DNA from: Candidatus Omnitrophota bacterium
GTDB taxonomy: Bacteria > Omnitrophota > Gorgyraeia > Duberdicusellales > 4484-171
Length of the DNA stretch: 64,000 nucleotides
Direction of reading: 5' to 3'
NCBI GenBank assembly: GCA_037146775.1
Contig: JBAWWL010000005.1
Location: 33,848 to 97,847 of the forward strand
The position numbers and the translations under genes were made by a program. Positions 4,121 through 63,360 of the stretch are shown one piece after another; the first letter of the stretch is position 1; the number at the start of each line of letters is the position of its first letter. The notes beneath the pieces are model-generated. The model was given only the letters and a program-made list of their open reading frames with translations. It did not search any database and had not been told where the DNA came from.

Positions 4121-5851
4121 ATGCTGAAAGAAAAATTTACCGATTATTTGCTTGAGAAAAAATTAATTTCCAAAGAAGACCTGGAAAAGGTCCTTACTCT
4201 TCAGAAAGAGAAGGGCGGTTCCCTGGTCGAACTTTTCATAAAGCTTGGGTGCATGCAAGAGGCTCAACTTCTTAATATTCTTTCCGGCTACCTCTCTATT
4301 CCGCCGATGCGGGTGATCAATCTGGCTATCGCCCAGGAGACTATCAGCTTAATTTCCGAACGTTTTGCCCGCAGTTTCCACGTTATCCCCATCGGTAAAA
4401 TCGGTAACAGCATTACTCTGGCTATGGCAGACCCCCTGAATGTGGTGGTTATCGACGACTTAAAGAAAATTACCGGTTGTGAGATTAACCCGGTGATTGC
4501 GCCTTTGTCGGAAATAAAAGAAGCCATTATTGCCCATTACACCCGGCCGCCCACAGACTCTATCGAAGAGATCATCAAGGGCCAAAAAGCGGAAGCAATC
4601 GAAATTATTAAGCAGGAAAAAGTATTGCAGAACCAAACCCTGGAAACCATTGACGAGGCGCCGGTAATGAAATTTACCAACTCGCTGCTTAAACGGGCTG
4701 TGTCTGACCGGGCATCGGACATCCTGTTAGAGCCTTTAGAGAAATCAAGCAGGGTAAGATTCCGTATCGACGGGCTTCTGCGGGAGGTAGAGACATTTTC
4801 CAAAAAAATCCACCCTTTTGTGATATCGCGCATCAAGGTTATGTGTAATCTTAATATCGCGGAGCACCGCTTGCCTCAAGAAGGAAGGTTCCGTAGCTCA
4901 ATTTTAGAGCGTAGCGTAGACTTCCGAGTTTCGATTGTGCCTTCCAGCTTAGGGGAGAAAGTTGCTATGCGTATTTTAGATAAAAATACCGCGCTTTTGG
5001 ATTTGGAGCTGTTGGGCTTTGAGGCTGACGTGCTCAAACAGATGAGAGCAGACAGTAAAAGGCCTCACGGTTTAATGTTGGTGTGCGGCCCGACCGGCTC
5101 AGGTAAAACCACCAGCCTTTACTCGGTTATTTCCTATATTTATAGTCCGGAGCGTAACATTATCACTGTAGAAGACCCTATAGAGTATCAGTTAAAAGGT
5201 ATTAACCAGGTAAGCATTAATCCCGCCATCAACCTGACTTTTGCTTCGTGCTTGCGCTCAATCTTGCGCCAGGATCCGGATATTATCATGGTGGGTGAAA
5301 TCAGGGATTTTGAAACCGCAGATATTACCATCAAGGCGGCTCTCACCGGCCATTTGGTTTTTTCAACCCTGCATACCACAACCAGCGCCGGCTCTGTTAC
5401 CCGTCTTATCAATATGGGCATTGAACCATTCCTGCTTTCTTCTACTTTAATAAGCGTTCTCTCTCAGCGTTTAGTGAGAAAGCTATGCCCCAAATGCAAA
5501 GAAGAGGCAGTGATCCTTGAAAGTATCCGGGAAAAATATGGTATCGATAAAAAAACGAAACTATACAAGGCAGTAGGCTGTAACTCCTGCCAGCAGACAG
5601 GATATAGAGGCCGTATTGCTTTAAGCGAGTATTTACCGATTTCGCCAAAGATACGGTTTTTAGTGAATGCGGCCACTTCGGAGCACGTGATAAAAAAAGA
5701 AGCCCGTATGTTGGGTATGCGTACGCTGCGTGAAGACGGCATCCTGAAGCTCAACACCGGCCTCACTACTTTAGAGGAAGTGCTTAAGGTAACGGGGGCG
5801 GACGAACCATTGGGGTCAGAAGTCAGAGGTCAGAAGACAGAAGACAGATGA
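4121..5851 (+). CDS. pilB: type IV pilus assembly ATPase PilB/GspE family (paralog 1)
   Basis: 576 aa. N-terminal T2SSE_N domain. Walker A GPTGSGKTT, Asp box, His box. C-terminal tetracysteine (CPKC...CNSC). C-terminal tail GSEVRGQKTEDR is encoded by the heptamer-repeat array. Confidence 0.85.
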   Translation: MLKEKFTDYLLEKKLISKEDLEKVLTLQKEKGGSLVELFIKLGCMQEAQLLNILSGYLSIPPMRVINLAIAQETISLISERFARSFHVIPIGKIGNSITLAMADPLNVVVIDDLKKITGCEINPVIAPLSEIKEAIIAHYTRPPTDSIEEIIKGQKAEAIEIIKQEKVLQNQTLETIDEAPVMKFTNSLLKRAVSDRASDILLEPLEKSSRVRFRIDGLLREVETFSKKIHPFVISRIKVMCNLNIAEHRLPQEGRFRSSILERSVDFRVSIVPSSLGEKVAMRILDKNTALLDLELLGFEADVLKQMRADSKRPHGLMLVCGPTGSGKTTSLYSVISYIYSPERNIITVEDPIEYQLKGINQVSINPAINLTFASCLRSILRQDPDIIMVGEIRDFETADITIKAALTGHLVFSTLHTTTSAGSVTRLINMGIEPFLLSSTLISVLSQRLVRKLCPKCKEEAVILESIREKYGIDKKTKLYKAVGCNSCQQTGYRGRIALSEYLPISPKIRFLVNAATSEHVIKKEARMLGMRTLREDGILKLNTGLTTLEEVLKVTGADEPLGSEVRGQKTEDR

Positions 5852-5890
5852 CAGAGGACAGAGGACGGAAAGCAGAAGACAGGGGACAGG
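5814..5890. repeat. tandem heptanucleotide repeat array (GWCAGAR, about 11 units), locus A
   Basis: gtcagaa gtcagag gtcagaa gacagaa gacagat gacagag ... read directly from the sequence. Overlaps the pilB1 3' end. Confidence 0.8.
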
Positions 5891-6256
5891 GTGAAAATTA
5901 AAAGTGTAAAAGATTTGAAAGTATATAATATTGCTTACAGTTTAGCAATGGAAATATTTACAACAACAAAGAGTTTTCCCAAAGAAGAAATTTATTCATT
6001 AACAGACCAGATTAGGCGTTCTTCCCGTTCGGTGGCGATTAACATAAGGGAGGGTTTTGCAAAACGAAGATACGAGCAAGTATTTACACGTCATTTAAAT
6101 GATGCTTTTGGTTCTAGTGAAGAAACGAGAGGTTGGCTGAATTTTGCTAAAGATTGTCAATATATATCGCAGAAAATATACGAAAAATTAGATAAGCAAT
6201 ACGATGAGTTAAACGCAATGATATACGTTCTTATGAATAGTTGGCACGCTTTCTAG
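5891..6256 (+). CDS. four-helix-bundle protein (23S rRNA intervening-sequence protein family, PF05635-like)
   Basis: 121 aa. Family-typical N-terminus (IKSVKDLKVYNIAYSLAMEIF) and SSRSVAINIREG motif. GTG start. Confidence 0.6.
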   Translation: MKIKSVKDLKVYNIAYSLAMEIFTTTKSFPKEEIYSLTDQIRRSSRSVAINIREGFAKRRYEQVFTRHLNDAFGSSEETRGWLNFAKDCQYISQKIYEKLDKQYDELNAMIYVLMNSWHAF

Positions 6257-6284
6257 GTAAGAGCGATCAGGGGGGCAGATAATA

Positions 6285-6330
6285 TCTGACTTCCGACTTC
6301 TGACCTCTGTCTTCTGATCTCTGTTTTCTG
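6285..6330. repeat. tandem heptanucleotide repeat array, locus B (inverted orientation relative to locus A)
   Basis: tctgact tccgact tctgacc tctgtct tctgatc tctgttt is the reverse complement of GWCAGAR units. Confidence 0.8.
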
Positions 6331-6339
6331 GAGGAAAAC

Positions 6340-8019
6340 GTGAATGTAAAAGAGAAAATTTTAGACTACATCAAAACAACCAAGCCGATAGAGAAGGGGC
6401 TTTTGAAAAACATTGAAGGCACGGCAGATTATACTCATTTTAAACACATGCTTATTGAACACAATTTAATCAGCGAGGAGGAGTTGCTTCTTGTATTTTC
6501 CAAAGAATTCAAAATGCCTTTTTTAGACTTAAAAAAATACCGCATACCGCACAAAAGCAAAGATTTGATTCCCCGGGAAACCGCTTTTAAATACCGGGTT
6601 TTCCCTTTGTGTAAAATCGGCACTGTCCTGACTATCGCTACTTCTAATCCCCTGGATATTATTGCTTATGACGATATAAAAATAATTACCGGCGTTGAAA
6701 AGGTGGATTTGGTTCTTTGCCGCGAGGAAGATATTTTGAAAGCGCTCGATAACCTATACAAAATGGATGATATCAGCAAATTAGTAGATGAAGATTCTTC
6801 TATCGAGGTCGGTGAAGCTTTCGAAGCGAAAGAATCTTTAGAAACTTTAATCGAAGAAAGCAGCCGCCCGCCGATCGTGCGAGCGGTTGATTTGTTTATT
6901 TATAATGCGCTCAAAAAACGGGCGTCGGATATTCATATTGAACCGTATCAGGACAGGCTGCTGGTAAAATACAGGGTGGACGGAGTATTGTGCGAAGAGT
7001 TTAATTTTCCCAAAAAGAACCAGCAAGCTGTTTTAGCGCGCTTAAAAATAATTTCTTCACTGGATATTACCGAATCGCGCCTTCCCCAGGACGGCAGGTT
7101 CAAAGTTAAGTTTGAGGATCGGGAGATTGATTTTAGGGTATCCAGCCTGCCTACGAATTTCGGGGAAAAATTCGTATTGCGGGCGTTGGATAAAGAAAAC
7201 CTTTCTATTGGTTTAAGAAAATTAGGTTTTTCCGAAGAGCCGCTTAGACTCTTTGAGGGTGCGATTAAGGCGCCATTCGGCATTATTATAGTTACCGGTC
7301 CCACGGGGAGCGGGAAATCTACAACCCTGTATTCCATTGTCAGCCAAATAAATACGCCCGAGAAAAATATTGTCACTATCGAAGACCCCATAGAGTACCA
7401 ACTTGAAGGCATTACTCAATTGAGCGTGAGTACGGACATAGGGCTTACTTTTGCCGCCGGCTTGCGTTCAGTGTTACGCCAGTCACCGGATATTATCATG
7501 GTGGGGGAAATCAGAGATTCGGAAACCGCGGACATTGCTATTAAAGCCGCACTTACCGGAGAGATCATACTTTCTACTTTACATACGAATACGGCGGTAG
7601 GCGCGCTTACCCGGCTCATTGATATGGGTATAGAGCCGTTTTTACTTGCTTCCTCTCTGGTTGCTACCACGGCCCAACGTTTAATACGCAAGCTATGCCA
7701 GAAATGCCGGGAAAAATATCAGATAGAAGAAGAGGTCTTGAAAAAATTAAATGTCAACACTAAAACGAACGAATTTTACCGGCCTAAAGGCTGTCATTAT
7801 TGTAATGATACCGGTTATCATGGACGCATTGCGATCTTGGAAGTTTTGCTTTTAGATGATAGAATGAAAGAAATGATTGTTGAGCGCCGTTCAGAAGATG
7901 AGATTACCCAGTATGCCATCAAAGAGCGCGGATACAGGCCTTTGCGTGAAGATGGTATTTTGCGCTGCGTGGAGGGTGTTACTTCGCTTGAAGAAGTGTT
8001 GAGGGCGACGACGGAGTAG
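6340..8019 (+). CDS. pilB: type IV pilus assembly ATPase PilB/GspE family (paralog 2)
   Basis: 559 aa. GTG start with GGAGG SD. N-terminal T2SSE_N-like domain. Walker A GPTGSGKST. Tetracysteine CQKC...CHYC. Confidence 0.85.
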   Translation: MNVKEKILDYIKTTKPIEKGLLKNIEGTADYTHFKHMLIEHNLISEEELLLVFSKEFKMPFLDLKKYRIPHKSKDLIPRETAFKYRVFPLCKIGTVLTIATSNPLDIIAYDDIKIITGVEKVDLVLCREEDILKALDNLYKMDDISKLVDEDSSIEVGEAFEAKESLETLIEESSRPPIVRAVDLFIYNALKKRASDIHIEPYQDRLLVKYRVDGVLCEEFNFPKKNQQAVLARLKIISSLDITESRLPQDGRFKVKFEDREIDFRVSSLPTNFGEKFVLRALDKENLSIGLRKLGFSEEPLRLFEGAIKAPFGIIIVTGPTGSGKSTTLYSIVSQINTPEKNIVTIEDPIEYQLEGITQLSVSTDIGLTFAAGLRSVLRQSPDIIMVGEIRDSETADIAIKAALTGEIILSTLHTNTAVGALTRLIDMGIEPFLLASSLVATTAQRLIRKLCQKCREKYQIEEEVLKKLNVNTKTNEFYRPKGCHYCNDTGYHGRIAILEVLLLDDRMKEMIVERRSEDEITQYAIKERGYRPLREDGILRCVEGVTSLEEVLRATTE

Positions 8020-8065
8020 AACAGATGACAGACGTCAGAAGACAGAAGGCAGAGGGCAGAAGGTT
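8019..8065. repeat. tandem heptanucleotide repeat array, locus C
   Basis: aacagat gacagac gtcagaa gacagaa ggcagag ggcagaa, immediately after the pilB2 stop. Confidence 0.75.
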
Positions 8066-8083
8066 GGGGGATTAACGCGTTGC

Positions 8084-8131
8084 ACGATTAACGAATTGAG
8101 GTATTAAACAATTTTTTAATTCGTTAATTCT
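8084..8131. promoter_or_regulatory. inverted repeat (ttaacgaatt ... aattcgttaa) in a TTAAT-rich intergenic region upstream of pilC
   Basis: 10-bp arms separated by about 20 nt. Function not established. Confidence 0.3.
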
Positions 8132-8167
8132 TTAATCATTTAATGCATTAATTATTTAATAAAAACT

Positions 8168-9370: not shown

Positions 9371-9551
9371 CAATTTCAAGCTTAAATTTACTGCTTCCCA
9401 GCCCAGTTTGTCTATACTTCCTCTCTCTATCCCCCCACTCAATACTCACTACTATATACTCACGACTATGTTCGAGAACGCAATTTAGCTTCTTGAGCGC
9501 CAAAAGTTATAACTATTCAATGTTTATAAGGCTTTCTGGCTCCTGTCTAAA

Positions 9552-12649: not shown

Positions 12650-13182
12650 AAATCGAAAGAAACGTTATAATCTTTACCGCAATTATTGCAATCGCTGTCT
12701 TAGAGCTTTTGGTGTTATTGCCCCTGGAGGTGTCTCGAATTGTTGCTGTGCAGAAGAAGATTTCTGGCATAAAACGTAATCTTGTTACTATCGAAACAGA
12801 CTGGCCCAATAAAGATACCTATATCCGCAACCAAGAGGCAATTAGAGAGGCAATTGTGGGTACGCATGGAAAATTTGTCAGCCCACAAGAGGCATCCAAC
12901 CTGTTTTCTTTTATTTCTTCGGGAGGAAAAAAATTTAACGTAGAAATAAAAGTACTTAACCCTGCTGATTTGCAGGAATACGCTTCTACCAAGGCCGGAA
13001 AAATAAAATATTTGCCTATTACTATTTCTTTGCAAAGTTCGTTTCACAATCTTGCTCGCTTTTTGGAATATCTGCAGACCAGTCAATATTTCTTTGAGGT
13101 CAAGGAACTTAAAATTGGTTCTGGTTTTCCCACAAATGCGGTAGAAATGGTGTTATGTGGTTTAGTAAAAACAAAAGAATAG
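12637..13182 (+). CDS. pilO: PilO-like bitopic membrane protein
   Basis: 181 aa. Single TM helix. Synteny. Confidence 0.55.
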   Translation: MRKLKIERNVIIFTAIIAIAVLELLVLLPLEVSRIVAVQKKISGIKRNLVTIETDWPNKDTYIRNQEAIREAIVGTHGKFVSPQEASNLFSFISSGGKKFNVEIKVLNPADLQEYASTKAGKIKYLPITISLQSSFHNLARFLEYLQTSQYFFEVKELKIGSGFPTNAVEMVLCGLVKTKE

Positions 13183-13508
13183 TTATCGTGGCCGGCTTGG
13201 CGTTGCTGTGTGCCTGTACTCTTTTTGCCAAAGAAGAGAAATACCCTTTTGACCAGAATACTCGCGATCCTTTTTTACCTTTGGTCAGCAAGACAGGCCA
13301 ACTGCTTATACAAAAAGAAGCGACGCAGGGCGGTATGGTGCTTAAAGGTATCATCTATTCGTCTCGAGGGAGCTTAGCAATTATAAGTAATGAAGTATTT
13401 AAAAAAGATGATAAAATAAATGATTATAGTATAATGAAAATAGGCCGAAAGAAAGTTATTTTAAAAAAAGGTAAAGAAATACTTGTTTTAAAGTTGGAGG
13501 GAAAATGA
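13155..13508 (+). CDS. pilP: PilP-like lipoprotein
   Basis: 117 aa. Signal peptide with Cys. Conserved RDPF motif. Position immediately before the secretin. Confidence 0.5.
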   Translation: MWFSKNKRIVIVAGLALLCACTLFAKEEKYPFDQNTRDPFLPLVSKTGQLLIQKEATQGGMVLKGIIYSSRGSLAIISNEVFKKDDKINDYSIMKIGRKKVILKKGKEILVLKLEGK

Positions 13509-15133
13509 TCAAATATCGAATGTCTGATAATATGGGTCAGAAGTCAGAGGTCAGAAGTCAGAGGTCAGAAGTCAGAGGACAGATGTCAGAGGACAGACGA
13601 CAGAGGTCGGATGTCAGATTTTTCTGTTTTCTTCTTTGTGCCTTCTGTTTTCTGACAACAGCCTTCTACCCTCTGTTTTCTTTTGCCCAGGAGGAGATTA
13701 TTCCGGTTATTAAATTTAAAGACGCGGATATCAAGGTGGTGCTGCAATCTATAGCCCAGAAGGCTGTTAAGGACGGGCGGAAGGTAAATATTGTTATCAG
13801 CCCAAAGGTGGAGGGCTTGGTGACAGTTGATTTGGAAAGTGTTAACTGGCAGACTGCGCTCAAGGGTGTGCTCAATGCCTACGGTTATAGTTATCGTTGG
13901 GCAGGGGAGAACATTATTTTGGTAGCGACAATTGATGAAATTAAAGAGCGCGAGGTGCAAGATAAAGAAAGACAGGAAATCGAAGTTCCCAAGATCAAGA
14001 TTTTTAAATTAAAATATATTGATGCAAATGATGCGAAAAAAACTATTACTCCTTTGCTTTCTCCGGTTGGTAAAGTGTCTGTTTTGGAGGCTACTGGCCA
14101 AGCAGGATGGGAGTTTGGAGACGATTTTGCTAAGCGTAAGAGGGCAGAGCAGGGACAAATTTCCCGCACTAAATCATTAATAGTTTCCGATGTTTCAAAA
14201 AGCCTGGAAGAGATAGAGAAATTGCTGGTTGAGGTAGACATTATGCCCAAACAGGTGTTGATAAAAGTCAAGATTATGGAAGTTGACAAGGATGTGCTAG
14301 ATGACATTGGTTTTGAATGGGGAACAGGAAAAGGTGGAGCCGGAGGAGTGTCGTTTGATCAGTTAGACGTTAATGGTAAAAATACAAAAAATTTAGGTGG
14401 TCGCATGTGGACTGGAGTGGATCCTTCTGTTTTGACAGATGGTGGTTTAAATACGGCCAAAGAAGGATTGAAGATCGATTTTAAGAGTATTACCGGCTCA
14501 CAGTTTGAAGTGATTATGCATGCCTTGGAAAAAGACAAACGAGCAATCACCCTTTCCGCACCTTCTATTTTAACTCTGAACAATCAAGAGGCTTCGATAT
14601 TGGTGGGTTCGAAATTTCCCATAGTCAAAACCCAGGTAAGCGAACAAAGCAACCAGATTATTGGTGGTTCCTTAGAAAAATATCAGGATATCGGTATACA
14701 GTTAAATGTAGTACCGCAAATATGCGGCGAAGAGGAAAATTATGTAAATATGATTCTACACCCGGTAGTTTCAACCAAGACCGGGACTGTGGATATTAAA
14801 ACTACTGCTGACCCGCCGACAATACTTGCGCAATATCCGATGCTTGAGGTCAGAGAGGCGCAAACGCAGGCAGTCGTCAAGGATGGCGAAACCATTGTTT
14901 TAGGTGGTTTATTGAAAGACGCCAAATCAAAAGAATATAGAGGTATCCCGGTTTTAGATAAGCTTCCTTTTTTCGGTTCTCTTTTTAGGCGCGAGGGTGA
15001 TAATAGATCAAAAATAGATTTATTGATCTTTATCACCGCGCACGTGATACGGCAAGGAGAAGTTCTGCCGCAGGAAGCAATAAACATAACTCCGGTTACT
15101 TCCAAGTTCAAAAGAAAACAAAATGTATACTGA
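13505..15133 (+). CDS. pilQ: type IV pilus secretin PilQ
   Basis: C-terminal secretin signature (VLGGLL...RGIPVLDKLPFFGSLFR). The N-terminus is interrupted by heptamer repeats, so the true start may be the ATG at 13583. Confidence 0.85.
   Translation: MIKYRMSDNMGQKSEVRSQRSEVRGQMSEDRRQRSDVRFFCFLLCAFCFLTTAFYPLFSFAQEEIIPVIKFKDADIKVVLQSIAQKAVKDGRKVNIVISPKVEGLVTVDLESVNWQTALKGVLNAYGYSYRWAGENIILVATIDEIKEREVQDKERQEIEVPKIKIFKLKYIDANDAKKTITPLLSPVGKVSVLEATGQAGWEFGDDFAKRKRAEQGQISRTKSLIVSDVSKSLEEIEKLLVEVDIMPKQVLIKVKIMEVDKDVLDDIGFEWGTGKGGAGGVSFDQLDVNGKNTKNLGGRMWTGVDPSVLTDGGLNTAKEGLKIDFKSITGSQFEVIMHALEKDKRAITLSAPSILTLNNQEASILVGSKFPIVKTQVSEQSNQIIGGSLEKYQDIGIQLNVVPQICGEEENYVNMILHPVVSTKTGTVDIKTTADPPTILAQYPMLEVREAQTQAVVKDGETIVLGGLLKDAKSKEYRGIPVLDKLPFFGSLFRREGDNRSKIDLLIFITAHVIRQGEVLPQEAINITPVTSKFKRKQNVY
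13536..13618. repeat. tandem heptanucleotide repeat array, locus D (about 12 units) inside the annotated 5' end of pilQ
   Basis: gtcagaa gtcagag x3 then gacagat gtcagag gacagac ... Translates to SEVRSQRSEVRGQMSEDRRQRSDVR. Confidence 0.8.
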
Positions 15134-15920: not shown

Positions 15921-16004
15921 CTACGGTTTATATAGCGATAATATATAAAAAATTATTTCCCACCATTTTGACATTTGAGATTTGATTTTTGAATTTTACA
16001 ATAT

Positions 16005-55295: not shown

Positions 55296-55404
55296 AAATA
55301 AGGAAAAGATAGGCCAGGCAAGCATTTTTGTATCCTTGTAAAAGCAGCGCAAATATGTTATATACAAGGTGTAAAGTGTAAAAGTGACAATTTGGTATTT
55401 ACCC

Positions 55405-55490
55405 AGTGAAAAGGCAAACCAAGAGTAATCTTGGGACGCAAAGCTAAAGGTCCCGCGAGTAGCGGGAAGCCTGGCTGCCAAAGGGGAGGA
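55405..55490 (+). promoter_or_regulatory. c-di-GMP-I (GEMM) riboswitch aptamer
   Basis: GGCAAACC + 12-nt GNRA hairpin (aagaGUAAucuu) + GGGACGCAAAGC in the same order and spacing as the Vc2 aptamer. Followed by a P2-like hairpin cccgc-gagua-gcggg. Confidence 0.75.
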
Positions 55491-61992: not shown

Positions 61993-63303
<1,311 letters not shown>

Positions 63304-63360
63304 GTCAGAAGACAGACGTCAGAAAACAGAAGTCAGATGACAGAAGTCAGACGTCAGAAA
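63304..63360. repeat. tandem heptanucleotide repeat array, locus E
   Basis: gtcagaa gacagac gtcagaa aacagaa gtcagat gacagaa gtcagac gtcagaa, between metY and cysK. Confidence 0.8.

Follow-up and report, generated by a model that had tools for sequence, protein, structure and literature searches.

Tandem heptamer arrays around an intervening-sequence protein gene in a type IV pilus locus of Candidatus Omnitrophota

Intervening sequences (IVSs) in 23S ribosomal RNA (rRNA), together with their S23p open reading frame (ORF), are already published, as are the heptamers of the Coxiella IVS and the excess of heptamer repeats in some genomes. In Coxiella burnetii the IVS is 428 nt long, lies in helix 45, carries an S23p ORF and is closed by a 28-bp terminal stem (PMC4990558). 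Two to three tandem copies of GACAGAT and one of GACAGAA stand just before the S23p start, in a number that depends on the strain; RNase III excises the IVS, as mapped experimentally, its 5' cut falling where the first repeat begins, and the protein is apparently not made, its ORF being in decay (PMC4990558). Here we describe a stretch of 64,000 nt from a Candidatus Omnitrophota bacterium (GenBank assembly GCA_037146775.1, contig JBAWWL010000005.1, positions 33,848 to 97,847; hereafter the window), in which two inverted heptamer arrays enclose a gene of the same protein family (the intervening-sequence protein, IVP) between two type IV pilus genes. An earlier note, made from the letters alone, had described five arrays of the heptamer GWCAGAR in the window and called their function unknown, overlooking both the enclosed IVP gene and the occurrence of the same heptamer in the arms of an rRNA IVS.

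An IVP gene between inverted heptamer arrays

Tandem Repeats Finder (TRF) placed arrays of period 7, 14 or 21 at 5817-5889, 6285-6330 (reverse-complement units), 8021-8063, 13535-13618 and 63304-63359, which, with the sequence itself, bore out all five arrays of the earlier note and their character as dispersed tandem heptamers at gene boundaries. When divided in register, they comprise 11, 7, 6, 12 and 8 units along the window, and the consensus over all 44 units is G(38) W(40) C(44) A(41) G(44) A(42) N. The near-invariant C, A, G and A positions identify CAGA as the core. Three or more CAGA cores in a row, spaced by 7 nt, occurred five times in the window compared with 0.01 times per dinucleotide-type shuffle, and chance is not the explanation. 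A sixth array, degenerate, inverted and of TTTTCTG type, lies at 13620-13680, directly 3' of the array in pilQ. The features discussed below are as follows.

5814-5890, forward strand: probable 5' arm of the IVP cassette, 11 purine-rich heptamers (GTCAGAA ... GACAGGG); sequence, TRF, pairing with 6285-6330
5891-6256, forward strand: IVP ORF, 121 aa, cargo in the loop of the predicted stem-loop; PF05635, TIGR02436, PDB relatives
6285-6330, forward strand: probable 3' arm of the IVP cassette, 7 inverted heptamers (TCTGACT, TCTGTCT and similar); TRF, complementarity, fold
8019-8065, forward strand: solo purine-rich array of 6 units, from the pilB2 stop codon; TRF, strain comparison
13535-13618, forward strand: 5' arm of an ORF-less hairpin, 12 heptamers in the 5' coding region of pilQ; TRF, PilQ orthologs
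13620-13680, forward strand: degenerate pyrimidine-rich 3' arm (TTTTCTG type) of the same pilQ hairpin; TRF row 13620-13654, fold, orthologs
63304-63360, forward strand: solo purine-rich array of 8 units, after the TAG of the ORF at 62008-63303; TRF, sequence

The earlier note had allowed that the repeats might be assembly artefacts or might be confined to the window. Neither holds. JGI contigs assembled independently from other samples (L172 and L173) have the same arrays at matching sites, which rules out an artefact, and the family is present in many genomes and phyla. A Logan contig whose sequence is identical to the window stops inside the pilQ array, a typical repeat break.

The ORF at 5891-6256 starts with GTG and matches PF05635, the "23S rRNA intervening-sequence protein" family (IVP/S23p, "four helix bundle protein"), with E=1.1e-33 and a score of 116 bits (cut-off 33.8); TIGR02436, "four helix bundle protein", gives a second match at 106 bits. 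Relatives in the PDB are 2GSC (Xanthomonas XCC0516) and 2RLD. An exact look-up of the ORF translated from its GTG start returned no match; the protein was recovered through the neighbouring gene and homology, and is 100% identical to a protein of an Omnitrophota metagenome-assembled genome (MAG) at NCBI. Between this IVP and its relatives, nonsynonymous divergence (dN) was 0.16-0.26 while synonymous divergence (dS) was saturated or >2.5, the misaligned pair with L023 being ignored. Judged by these rates, the gene is under purifying selection.

Segments 5817-5862 and 6285-6330 are complementary over 46 nt with 78% Watson-Crick pairs, and the pairing becomes near-continuous with G-U pairs. In the predicted fold of 5800-6345, the first two arrays form the closing stem around the IVP ORF (z = -4.0). 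The last units of the 5' arm (GGGGACAGGG) directly precede the IVP start codon, and the 3' arm ends 9 nt before the GTG start of pilB2, with a GGAGG ribosome-binding site directly after the arm. The neighbours pilB1 and pilB2 encode PilB-type ATPases with 42% mutual identity; PilC is encoded next, and PilQ further downstream. Three ORFs had been thought to receive array sequence. This is correct for pilB1, which gains its last 12 codons (GSEVRGQKTEDR and a stop) from the 5' arm, and for pilQ (codons ~11-38), but not for the presumed metY, since the ORF at 62008-63303 ends with TAG and the array begins at 63304.

The same heptamer family was found in rRNA. A tblastn search of plasmids gave an IVP match on Azospirillum lipoferum plasmid AZO_p2 (L167), at a place where no protein is annotated. 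The match lies inside a 23S rRNA gene (Rfam LSU, the large-subunit model, 2159 bits), and the ORF-bearing insert replaces the hairpin loop at model position 1218, consistent with the reported helix-45 IVS site. Its arms are CAGAGGACGGATGACAGAGGACGGAGGACAGA and TCCGTCCTCTGTCTTCTGTCATCCGTCTTCTGA, and its GACAGAG/GACGGAG units belong to the family seen in the window.

The window cassette shares four traits with helix-45 IVSs of the Coxiella, Leptospira and Azospirillum type: cargo from PF05635/S23p; a stem-loop whose loop carries the ORF in the sense orientation of the host transcript; an arm of GACAGAx heptamers immediately 5' of that ORF (11 units in the window); and a unit number that differs between strains, in Coxiella as between the window and L172. 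These shared traits make the first two arrays and their ORF the same kind of element as an rRNA IVS, and it is very probable that the arrays are IVS-type arms. The cassette differs from rRNA IVSs in its host transcript, which is a type IV pilus mRNA rather than pre-23S rRNA, and in its longer arms (7-11 units as opposed to 3-4). In contrast to the decaying ORF of Coxiella, its ORF is intact and subject to purifying selection, and ORF-less and solo copies are scattered near it. No match to an rRNA gene was found in the window.

Distribution of the anatomy and strand-specific evidence on pairing

We compared 80 genome loci encoding relatives of the window IVP, of which 79 were testable for arms. 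They came from Omnitrophota, Planctomycetota, Atribacterota, Desulfobacterota, Cloacimonadota, Bacteroidota, a Methanophagales MAG and others, and IVP identities reached 65-76% even between phyla (Omnitrophota, Planctomycetota, Atribacterota, Desulfobacterota and the Methanophagales MAG). A significant inverted repeat of short tandem units surrounded the IVP gene in 61 of the 79 loci, searched over 150 nt upstream and ~200 nt downstream. The unit varied by lineage while the arms stayed complementary, as in GACAGAA/TTCTGTC, GACGGAG/TCTGTCC, GGGACGA/TCCCTCG, ACGATGG/TCCATCA, GTGGCA/TGCCAC and AGCAGGGG/CCCCCTGC. Across 1.14 Mb of loci plus the window, the commonest tandem period was 7 (226 of 547 arrays), with 43 arrays at period 14 and 13 at period 21. 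Loop lengths of the 112 inverted array pairs formed a sharp peak of ORF size (350-450 nt), and loops shorter than 60 nt, a second class, belonged to ORF-less hairpins; 53 pairs enclosed an IVP profile match. The IVP of the Methanophagales MAG (L018, JAFNKG010000050.1, 6888-7247) is 68% identical to that of the window and has arms AGAAAAT/TCTGACT; its place on an archaeon-binned contig reflects either cross-domain transfer or a binning error. A viral scan gave one distant IVP relative, at 32% identity (L168).

In 56 of 73 cases the IVP gene pointed the same way as the genes on either side, and the median spacers measured 92 and 78 nt, which implies that it normally rides inside host operons. 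Short intergenic spacers across the loci were filled by ORF-less hairpins. Where these lay between co-directional genes and had clearly purine- or pyrimidine-rich arms, the purine arm came first in 13 of 14. Because a purine-first hairpin reads purine-first on both strands, this ratio reflects the chirality of the element and is not strand evidence; we accordingly rejected "purine arm first" as an orientation relative to transcription. Solo arrays accounted for 141 of the 285 period-7-type arrays across all loci and, between co-directional genes, had their purine strand as the sense strand in 40 cases versus 18.

Several loci of Omnitrophota and Desulfobacterales (L005, L006, L013, L023) contained several heptamer families as hairpins and solo arrays, among them AGCGGAC, ATAGCGT, AGCTGAA and GGTGTCA. 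One of these (L005, JAZDOX010000094.1, 300-13500) encodes two IVP paralogs with the unit families GTCAGAA and ATAGCGT; the ATAGCGT family lies ahead of the divergent second paralog (13119-13451) and has further copies dispersed in the vicinity. The window itself has two further small period-7 arrays, ATTTTGA x4.7 at 15965-15997 in the 85-nt spacer 15921-16004, and ACTCAAT (or a 14-mer) at 9437-9469 in the 500-nt spacer between pilC and a pilin gene. These may be members of other heptamer families, as coexist in related loci. In the FLSHclust study, a figure legend places "23S rRNA IVP" among genes linked to CRISPR arrays (PMC10910872); speculatively, IVP-flanking tandem arrays might have been called there as CRISPR-like arrays.

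Strict period-7 runs were present in 33 of 89 IVP upstream flanks compared with 4 of 258 random segments. The self-similarity detector behind these two counts under-calls imperfect arrays and was used for this enrichment test alone; elsewhere we relied on TRF and arm-complementarity scoring. This concentration at IVP genes bears on whether the arrays could be functionless slippage products, that is, neutral expansions of chance duplications that lie near IVP genes by coincidence. Slippage would account for a change in unit number between strains, for the many unit families within single loci and for a vestigial ACAGATGACAGAT in the empty site of a related locus described below (L082). It would not account for the enrichment, for arms that are complementary across lineages, for the consistent placement of the purine arm in ORF-less hairpins or for the recurrence of the same unit in rRNA IVSs of distant bacteria. 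Slippage as the sole origin is thus largely refuted and extremely improbable.

We next considered whether pairing acts in DNA or in RNA. Strand evidence came from four sources: counts of G-U pairs against A-C mismatches, sense and antisense folding energies, the co-orientation of IVP genes and the orientation of solo arrays. Under symmetric scoring, arm pairing contained 123 G-U pairs versus 81 A-C mismatches (p=0.004), with the excess in 30 loci versus 13. Folding energies favoured the sense strand over the antisense strand in 37 of 55 IVP stems (p=0.006) and likewise in 18 of 27 ORF-less hairpins (p=0.012). Pairing therefore looks like something that matters in the sense-strand RNA.

From these observations we propose the following course of events. 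A full copy comprises a purine-rich heptamer array, a promoterless IVP gene and an inverted pyrimidine-rich array, and one such copy, inserted between pilB1 and pilB2, would be co-transcribed with them. The arrays would pair in the sense transcript to form a long, imperfect double-stranded stem, which RNase III would cut by analogy with rRNA IVSs. The cut would split the pil transcript between pilB1 and pilB2 and free the IVP mRNA, and the hairpin at the head of pilQ would be processed likewise. The cassette would represent a selfish multi-copy family, with the other arrays of the window being one ORF-less hairpin and two solo 5'-type arms at stop codons. On the strength of the rRNA precedent, we lean slightly towards RNase III processing of the arrays in this organism. 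An effect on pilus gene expression, and the mode of spread, we only infer.

Turnover between strains and arrays within coding sequence

A metagenome scan with PilB2 returned a single close ortholog (L082, PilB2 75% identical), the other 79 loci carrying generic PilB at ~45% identity. L082 has the gene order of the window, with a pilB1-pilB2 spacer of 61 nt versus 488 nt in the window and a pilB2-pilC spacer of 34 nt versus 148 nt. Both the IVP gene and the TRF arrays are missing from it, the array after pilB2 included, and its empty spacer holds only the vestigial heptamer remnant mentioned above. PilB1 ends in ...VTGPDEPL and a stop in L082, and in ...VTGADEPL followed by the array-encoded tail in the window, so array 1 begins exactly at the position of the ortholog's stop codon. 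As read from this alignment, the cassette between pilB1 and pilB2 is an insertion.

The closer strain represented by L172 and L173 carries the cassette at the same site. Nucleotide identity between the window and L172 was 93.6% for pilB1, 97.0% for pilB2 and 94.2% for pilC, compared with 79.8% for the IVP ORF (5891-6256 against L172 2432-2863). The middle of the IVP ORF was near-identical and its ends diverged, which suggests recombination with other IVP copies. A comparison of array lengths between strains, as the earlier note had proposed, showed that the 5' arm differs by exactly one 7-nt unit, L172 being longer by one. The 3' arm in L172 is largely rewritten and longer than that of the window, and the array after pilB2 is of equal length with different unit sequences. 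The cassette thus behaves as a recombining multi-copy family that evolves much faster than its flanks and whose arms change in 7-nt steps.

Presence and absence at orthologous loci could also be explained at the DNA level. The arrays would then be terminal inverted repeats of a non-autonomous transposon, or of a cassette resembling a miniature inverted-repeat transposable element (MITE), with the enzyme encoded elsewhere and RNA structure as a by-product. The spread of the element over phyla and even domains, with IVPs 65-76% identical, and the existence of ORF-less hairpin derivatives agree with such an origin. However, no transposase adjoins the cassette, either in the window or in the loci with listed neighbour genes, and no target-site duplication or direct repeat is visible at the window junctions. 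The arms are also too variable in length and sequence for a typical transposase end, and the excess of G-U over A-C together with the sense-strand energy bias points to selection on RNA. A purely DNA-level element is therefore unlikely.

Arrays of this family can also enter coding sequence. The array at 13535-13618 and the U-rich segment 13620-13680 constitute an ORF-less hairpin inside the pilQ coding region, and the fold of 13530-13679 has a predicted energy of -59.1 kcal/mol in the sense and -46.2 kcal/mol in the antisense orientation. With a translation start at 13505, the purine arm yields charged residues (GQKSEVRSQRSEVRGQMSEDRRQRSDVR), and the hydrophobic core of the signal peptide of PilQ (FFCFLLCAFCFLTTAFYPLFSFA) comes from the pyrimidine arm. 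NCBI places the PilQ start at 13583, inside the array, and the protein is on record as 516 aa (P0121) and 542 aa (P0241). PilQ orthologs P0122, P0132 and P0135 have an array-encoded N-terminus of the same kind (SEVRSQK ... CLLTSALC), confirmed in the DNA of L169 (3456-3670) and L170 (6001-6130). The closest PilQ orthologs of the window (P0123-P0131, L171) carry no arrays, and their signal peptide is of the ordinary type. In all, a heptamer hairpin is read as a signal peptide in four Omnitrophota PilQ orthologs, including that of the window (13505-13700), with hydrophobic cores such as CLLTSA... and FFCFLLCAF....

A repeat of period 7 within a reading frame raises the possibility of phase variation, in which slipped-strand gain or loss of 7 nt would shift frames or the structure of the 5' untranslated region and thereby switch pilus genes, especially pilQ. 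The period is not a multiple of three, the pilQ array lies inside the ORF if the start is 13505 and opens with three perfect 14-nt copies, and a one-unit indel separates close strains, just as copy number varies among Coxiella strains. Phase variation that depends on RNase III and a heptamer repeat is also described in Haemophilus (PMC12721329). On the other hand, the arrays are imperfect, with 71-80% matches at period 7, and the observed indel lies after the pilB1 stop, where it alters no reading frame. The pilQ gene has an alternative start within the array, the one used by NCBI, and the mechanism leaves unexplained why most arrays are intergenic and why inverted pairs surround one gene. We consider phase variation highly unlikely as the role of these arrays.

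The two remaining arrays of the window, both purine-rich on the sense strand, lack a partner in the usual arrangement. The one after pilB2 starts at the stop codon (8017-8019) and does not invade the ORF. The array at 63304-63360 follows directly on a TAG, 53 nt before the next gene, and only a vestigial partner (AAAATCTGATTTCT) comes after it. Pairing of 6285-6330 with 8021-8063 across pilB2 was treated as incidental, as the arrangement is non-canonical with the pyrimidine arm first. Between the pilB2 array and the pilC start lies an AT-rich palindromic element of ~95 nt (8066-8160; TTAATTCGTTAAT-type repeats, predicted fold -29.2 kcal/mol), which is missing from L172 and thus represents a separate recent insertion.

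Arrays also disturbed gene calls, as in the 12-aa tail of PilB1 (window 5851) and in L172, where the IVP was called 22 codons too long with a start inside the 5' arm (L172 2432). The sole Rfam family found in the window was a c-di-GMP-I riboswitch aptamer at 55403-55482 on the forward strand (RF01051, 63.7 bits).

We consider it reasonably likely that the arrays of the window are arms, orphaned arms and ORF-less derivatives of an IVS-type stem-loop cassette that is processed by RNase III and persists as a selfish multi-copy family. Several points weigh against this interpretation. The strand asymmetries are significant but modest, at about 60:40 to 67:33, and RNase III cleavage is extrapolated from the rRNA of Coxiella, Leptospira and Salmonella. 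Two of the five arrays (8019-8065 and 63304-63360) are without a usable partner, so a role in stem cleavage cannot apply to them directly. Whereas rRNA IVSs occupy a helix loop of a 23S rRNA gene (helix 9, 25 or 45), the cassette sits outside any rRNA gene, between pilB1 and pilB2, and hence is IVS-type and not an IVS in the strict sense. Given that no transposase, target-site duplication or mobility machinery was found, "mobile" describes its distribution and nothing further. Lastly, the CAGA core (C 44/44, G 44/44) is more conserved than pairing alone requires, which suggests additional recognition of the sequence by a protein or enzyme.

Other dispersed repeats and implications

The earlier note had likened the arrays to cyanobacterial short tandemly repeated repetitive (STRR) sequences, a comparison that stands in part. 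Like STRRs, the arrays are tandem heptanucleotide units scattered mainly between genes; unlike them, the unit is GWCAGAR and the host is Candidatus Omnitrophota rather than a cyanobacterium. STRR units include CCCCAGT, TTGGTCA and CAACAGT, none of which matches GWCAGAR. Inverted short tandem arrays nevertheless surround IVP genes on cyanobacterial plasmids. IVP homologs on plasmids were almost all cyanobacterial, with Nostoc contributing 21 and Calothrix 3 of 43 records, and among five plasmid loci examined (from Nostoc, Calothrix and Leptolyngbya) four had inverted arrays of period 7 or 8 on both sides. The fifth, from Nostoc PCC 7120, had a clear array downstream of the IVP only. The likeness to STRRs thus probably goes deeper than appearance, even though unit and host differ.

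A similar connection emerged for the heptamers of Xanthomonas (GGGAATC) and Nostoc (GGGGAYT), which are G-rich and have been interpreted as G-quadruplex formers (Rehm et al. 2015, PMC4692102). Xanthomonas has 186 GGGAATC arrays, 70 convergent inverted pairs occur in X. campestris, and repeat #15 in the supplementary table of that study overlaps the start codon of XCC0516 (PMC4692102). Since XCC0516 is the IVP solved as PDB 2GSC, a Xanthomonas GGGAATC array overlaps an IVP start codon. A search of the article text for "S23" and "intervening" found neither term, and no link to IVP or rRNA IVSs is drawn there. These heptamers resemble the window arrays in being tandem 7-nt units, mostly intergenic and often in convergent inverted pairs. 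They differ in that their units are G-rich, whereas GWCAGAR is without G-runs, and a G-quadruplex role for the window arrays is ruled out on that ground.

Repetitive extragenic palindromes (REPs), as found in bacterial interspersed mosaic elements (BIMEs) or REPINs, and their RAYT genes offer another parallel. There too, a single-copy gene lies between inverted copies of a short repeat that is also scattered between genes, including inside operons, and REP elements are known as RNA stem-loops that affect mRNA. In contrast, REPs are single palindromes of 20-40 nt, not tandem heptamers, and RAYT belongs to the tyrosine (HUH) transposases, while no catalytic activity is known for the 120-aa helical bundle of IVP. 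The window cassette further departs from the REP/RAYT and MITE types in having neither an adjoining transposase nor a visible target-site duplication. The Avd protein of diversity-generating retroelements (DGRs) shares with IVP a homologous four-helix-bundle fold and a pentameric state, reflected in weak matches to PF22296 and NF033474. We rejected the IVP as a DGR Avd because NF033474 scored 26.7 bits against a cut-off of 80 and the neighbouring genes are pilB1 and pilB2. No reverse transcriptase or template/variable repeat pair was noticed in the flanking genes, at which no dedicated search was aimed.

The REP/RAYT parallel suggests that IVP, a toroidal pentamer of four-helix bundles, could act in trans on the arrays. 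By binding to the CAGA cores that recur along the RNA or single-stranded DNA, the protein would stabilise the arrays, regulate them or promote their spread, and solo arrays would be working binding sites rather than debris; such a system is compatible with the RNase III model. The invariance of the CAGA core, with variation at two to three positions per unit, is as expected for spaced protein contacts. Arrays away from IVP genes matched the IVP-flanking unit of their own locus in 33% of cases versus 9% for other loci, and each of the two IVP paralogs of L005 has its own unit family, the second of which recurs nearby. The 186 Xanthomonas arrays, with one over the XCC0516 start codon (PMC4692102 supplement), and the strong conservation of IVP and its relationship to the nucleic-acid-associated Avd point in the same direction. 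However, the GACAGAR unit accompanies an IVP only 32% identical in Azospirillum, while IVPs that are 55-63% identical carry other units, so unit and protein do not simply co-diverge. The Coxiella protein, as noted above, is apparently not made and its ORF is decaying (PMC4990558). IVP is moreover a small helical bundle without an evident catalytic site for transposition. A gene-plus-repeat system is conceivable, though we consider it rather less likely than not.

A broader version of this idea would unite the tandem-heptamer families, namely cyanobacterial STRRs, Xanthomonas GGGAATC, GWCAGAR and the families of Omnitrophota, Planctomycetota and Bacteroidota, as one class of element, each family being founded by an autonomous IVP/S23p cassette, with the IVP pentamer reading its own arrays. 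We regard this unification as conceivable but rather doubtful. If true, the class would be a gene-plus-repeat symbiosis like that of RAYT and REPIN, and the 23S rRNA IVS would be a special case that landed in rRNA. As a side effect, translated hairpins would supply signal peptides, with the purine arm providing the charged part and the pyrimidine arm the hydrophobic part.

In the searchable literature, outside which most subscription journals lie, we found no report that IVP genes beyond rRNA are generally set in heptamer-arm stem-loops within ordinary operons of many phyla. Nor did that literature describe dispersed heptamer arrays as arms, ORF-less hairpins or orphan arms of an IVP element, or heptamer hairpins translated as signal peptides. 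There is a practical consequence for annotation, as arrays lengthen or shorten gene calls (the pilB1 tail, the pilQ start, the IVP start) and break assemblies. More generally, the element is not restricted to rRNA but occurs inside ordinary operons of many phyla, turns over fast and can enter coding sequence, as in the PilQ signal peptide. Its anatomy ties together three long-separate puzzles: rRNA IVSs with their S23p ORFs, the "four helix bundle protein" genes that abound in some phyla, and dispersed STRR-like heptamers.

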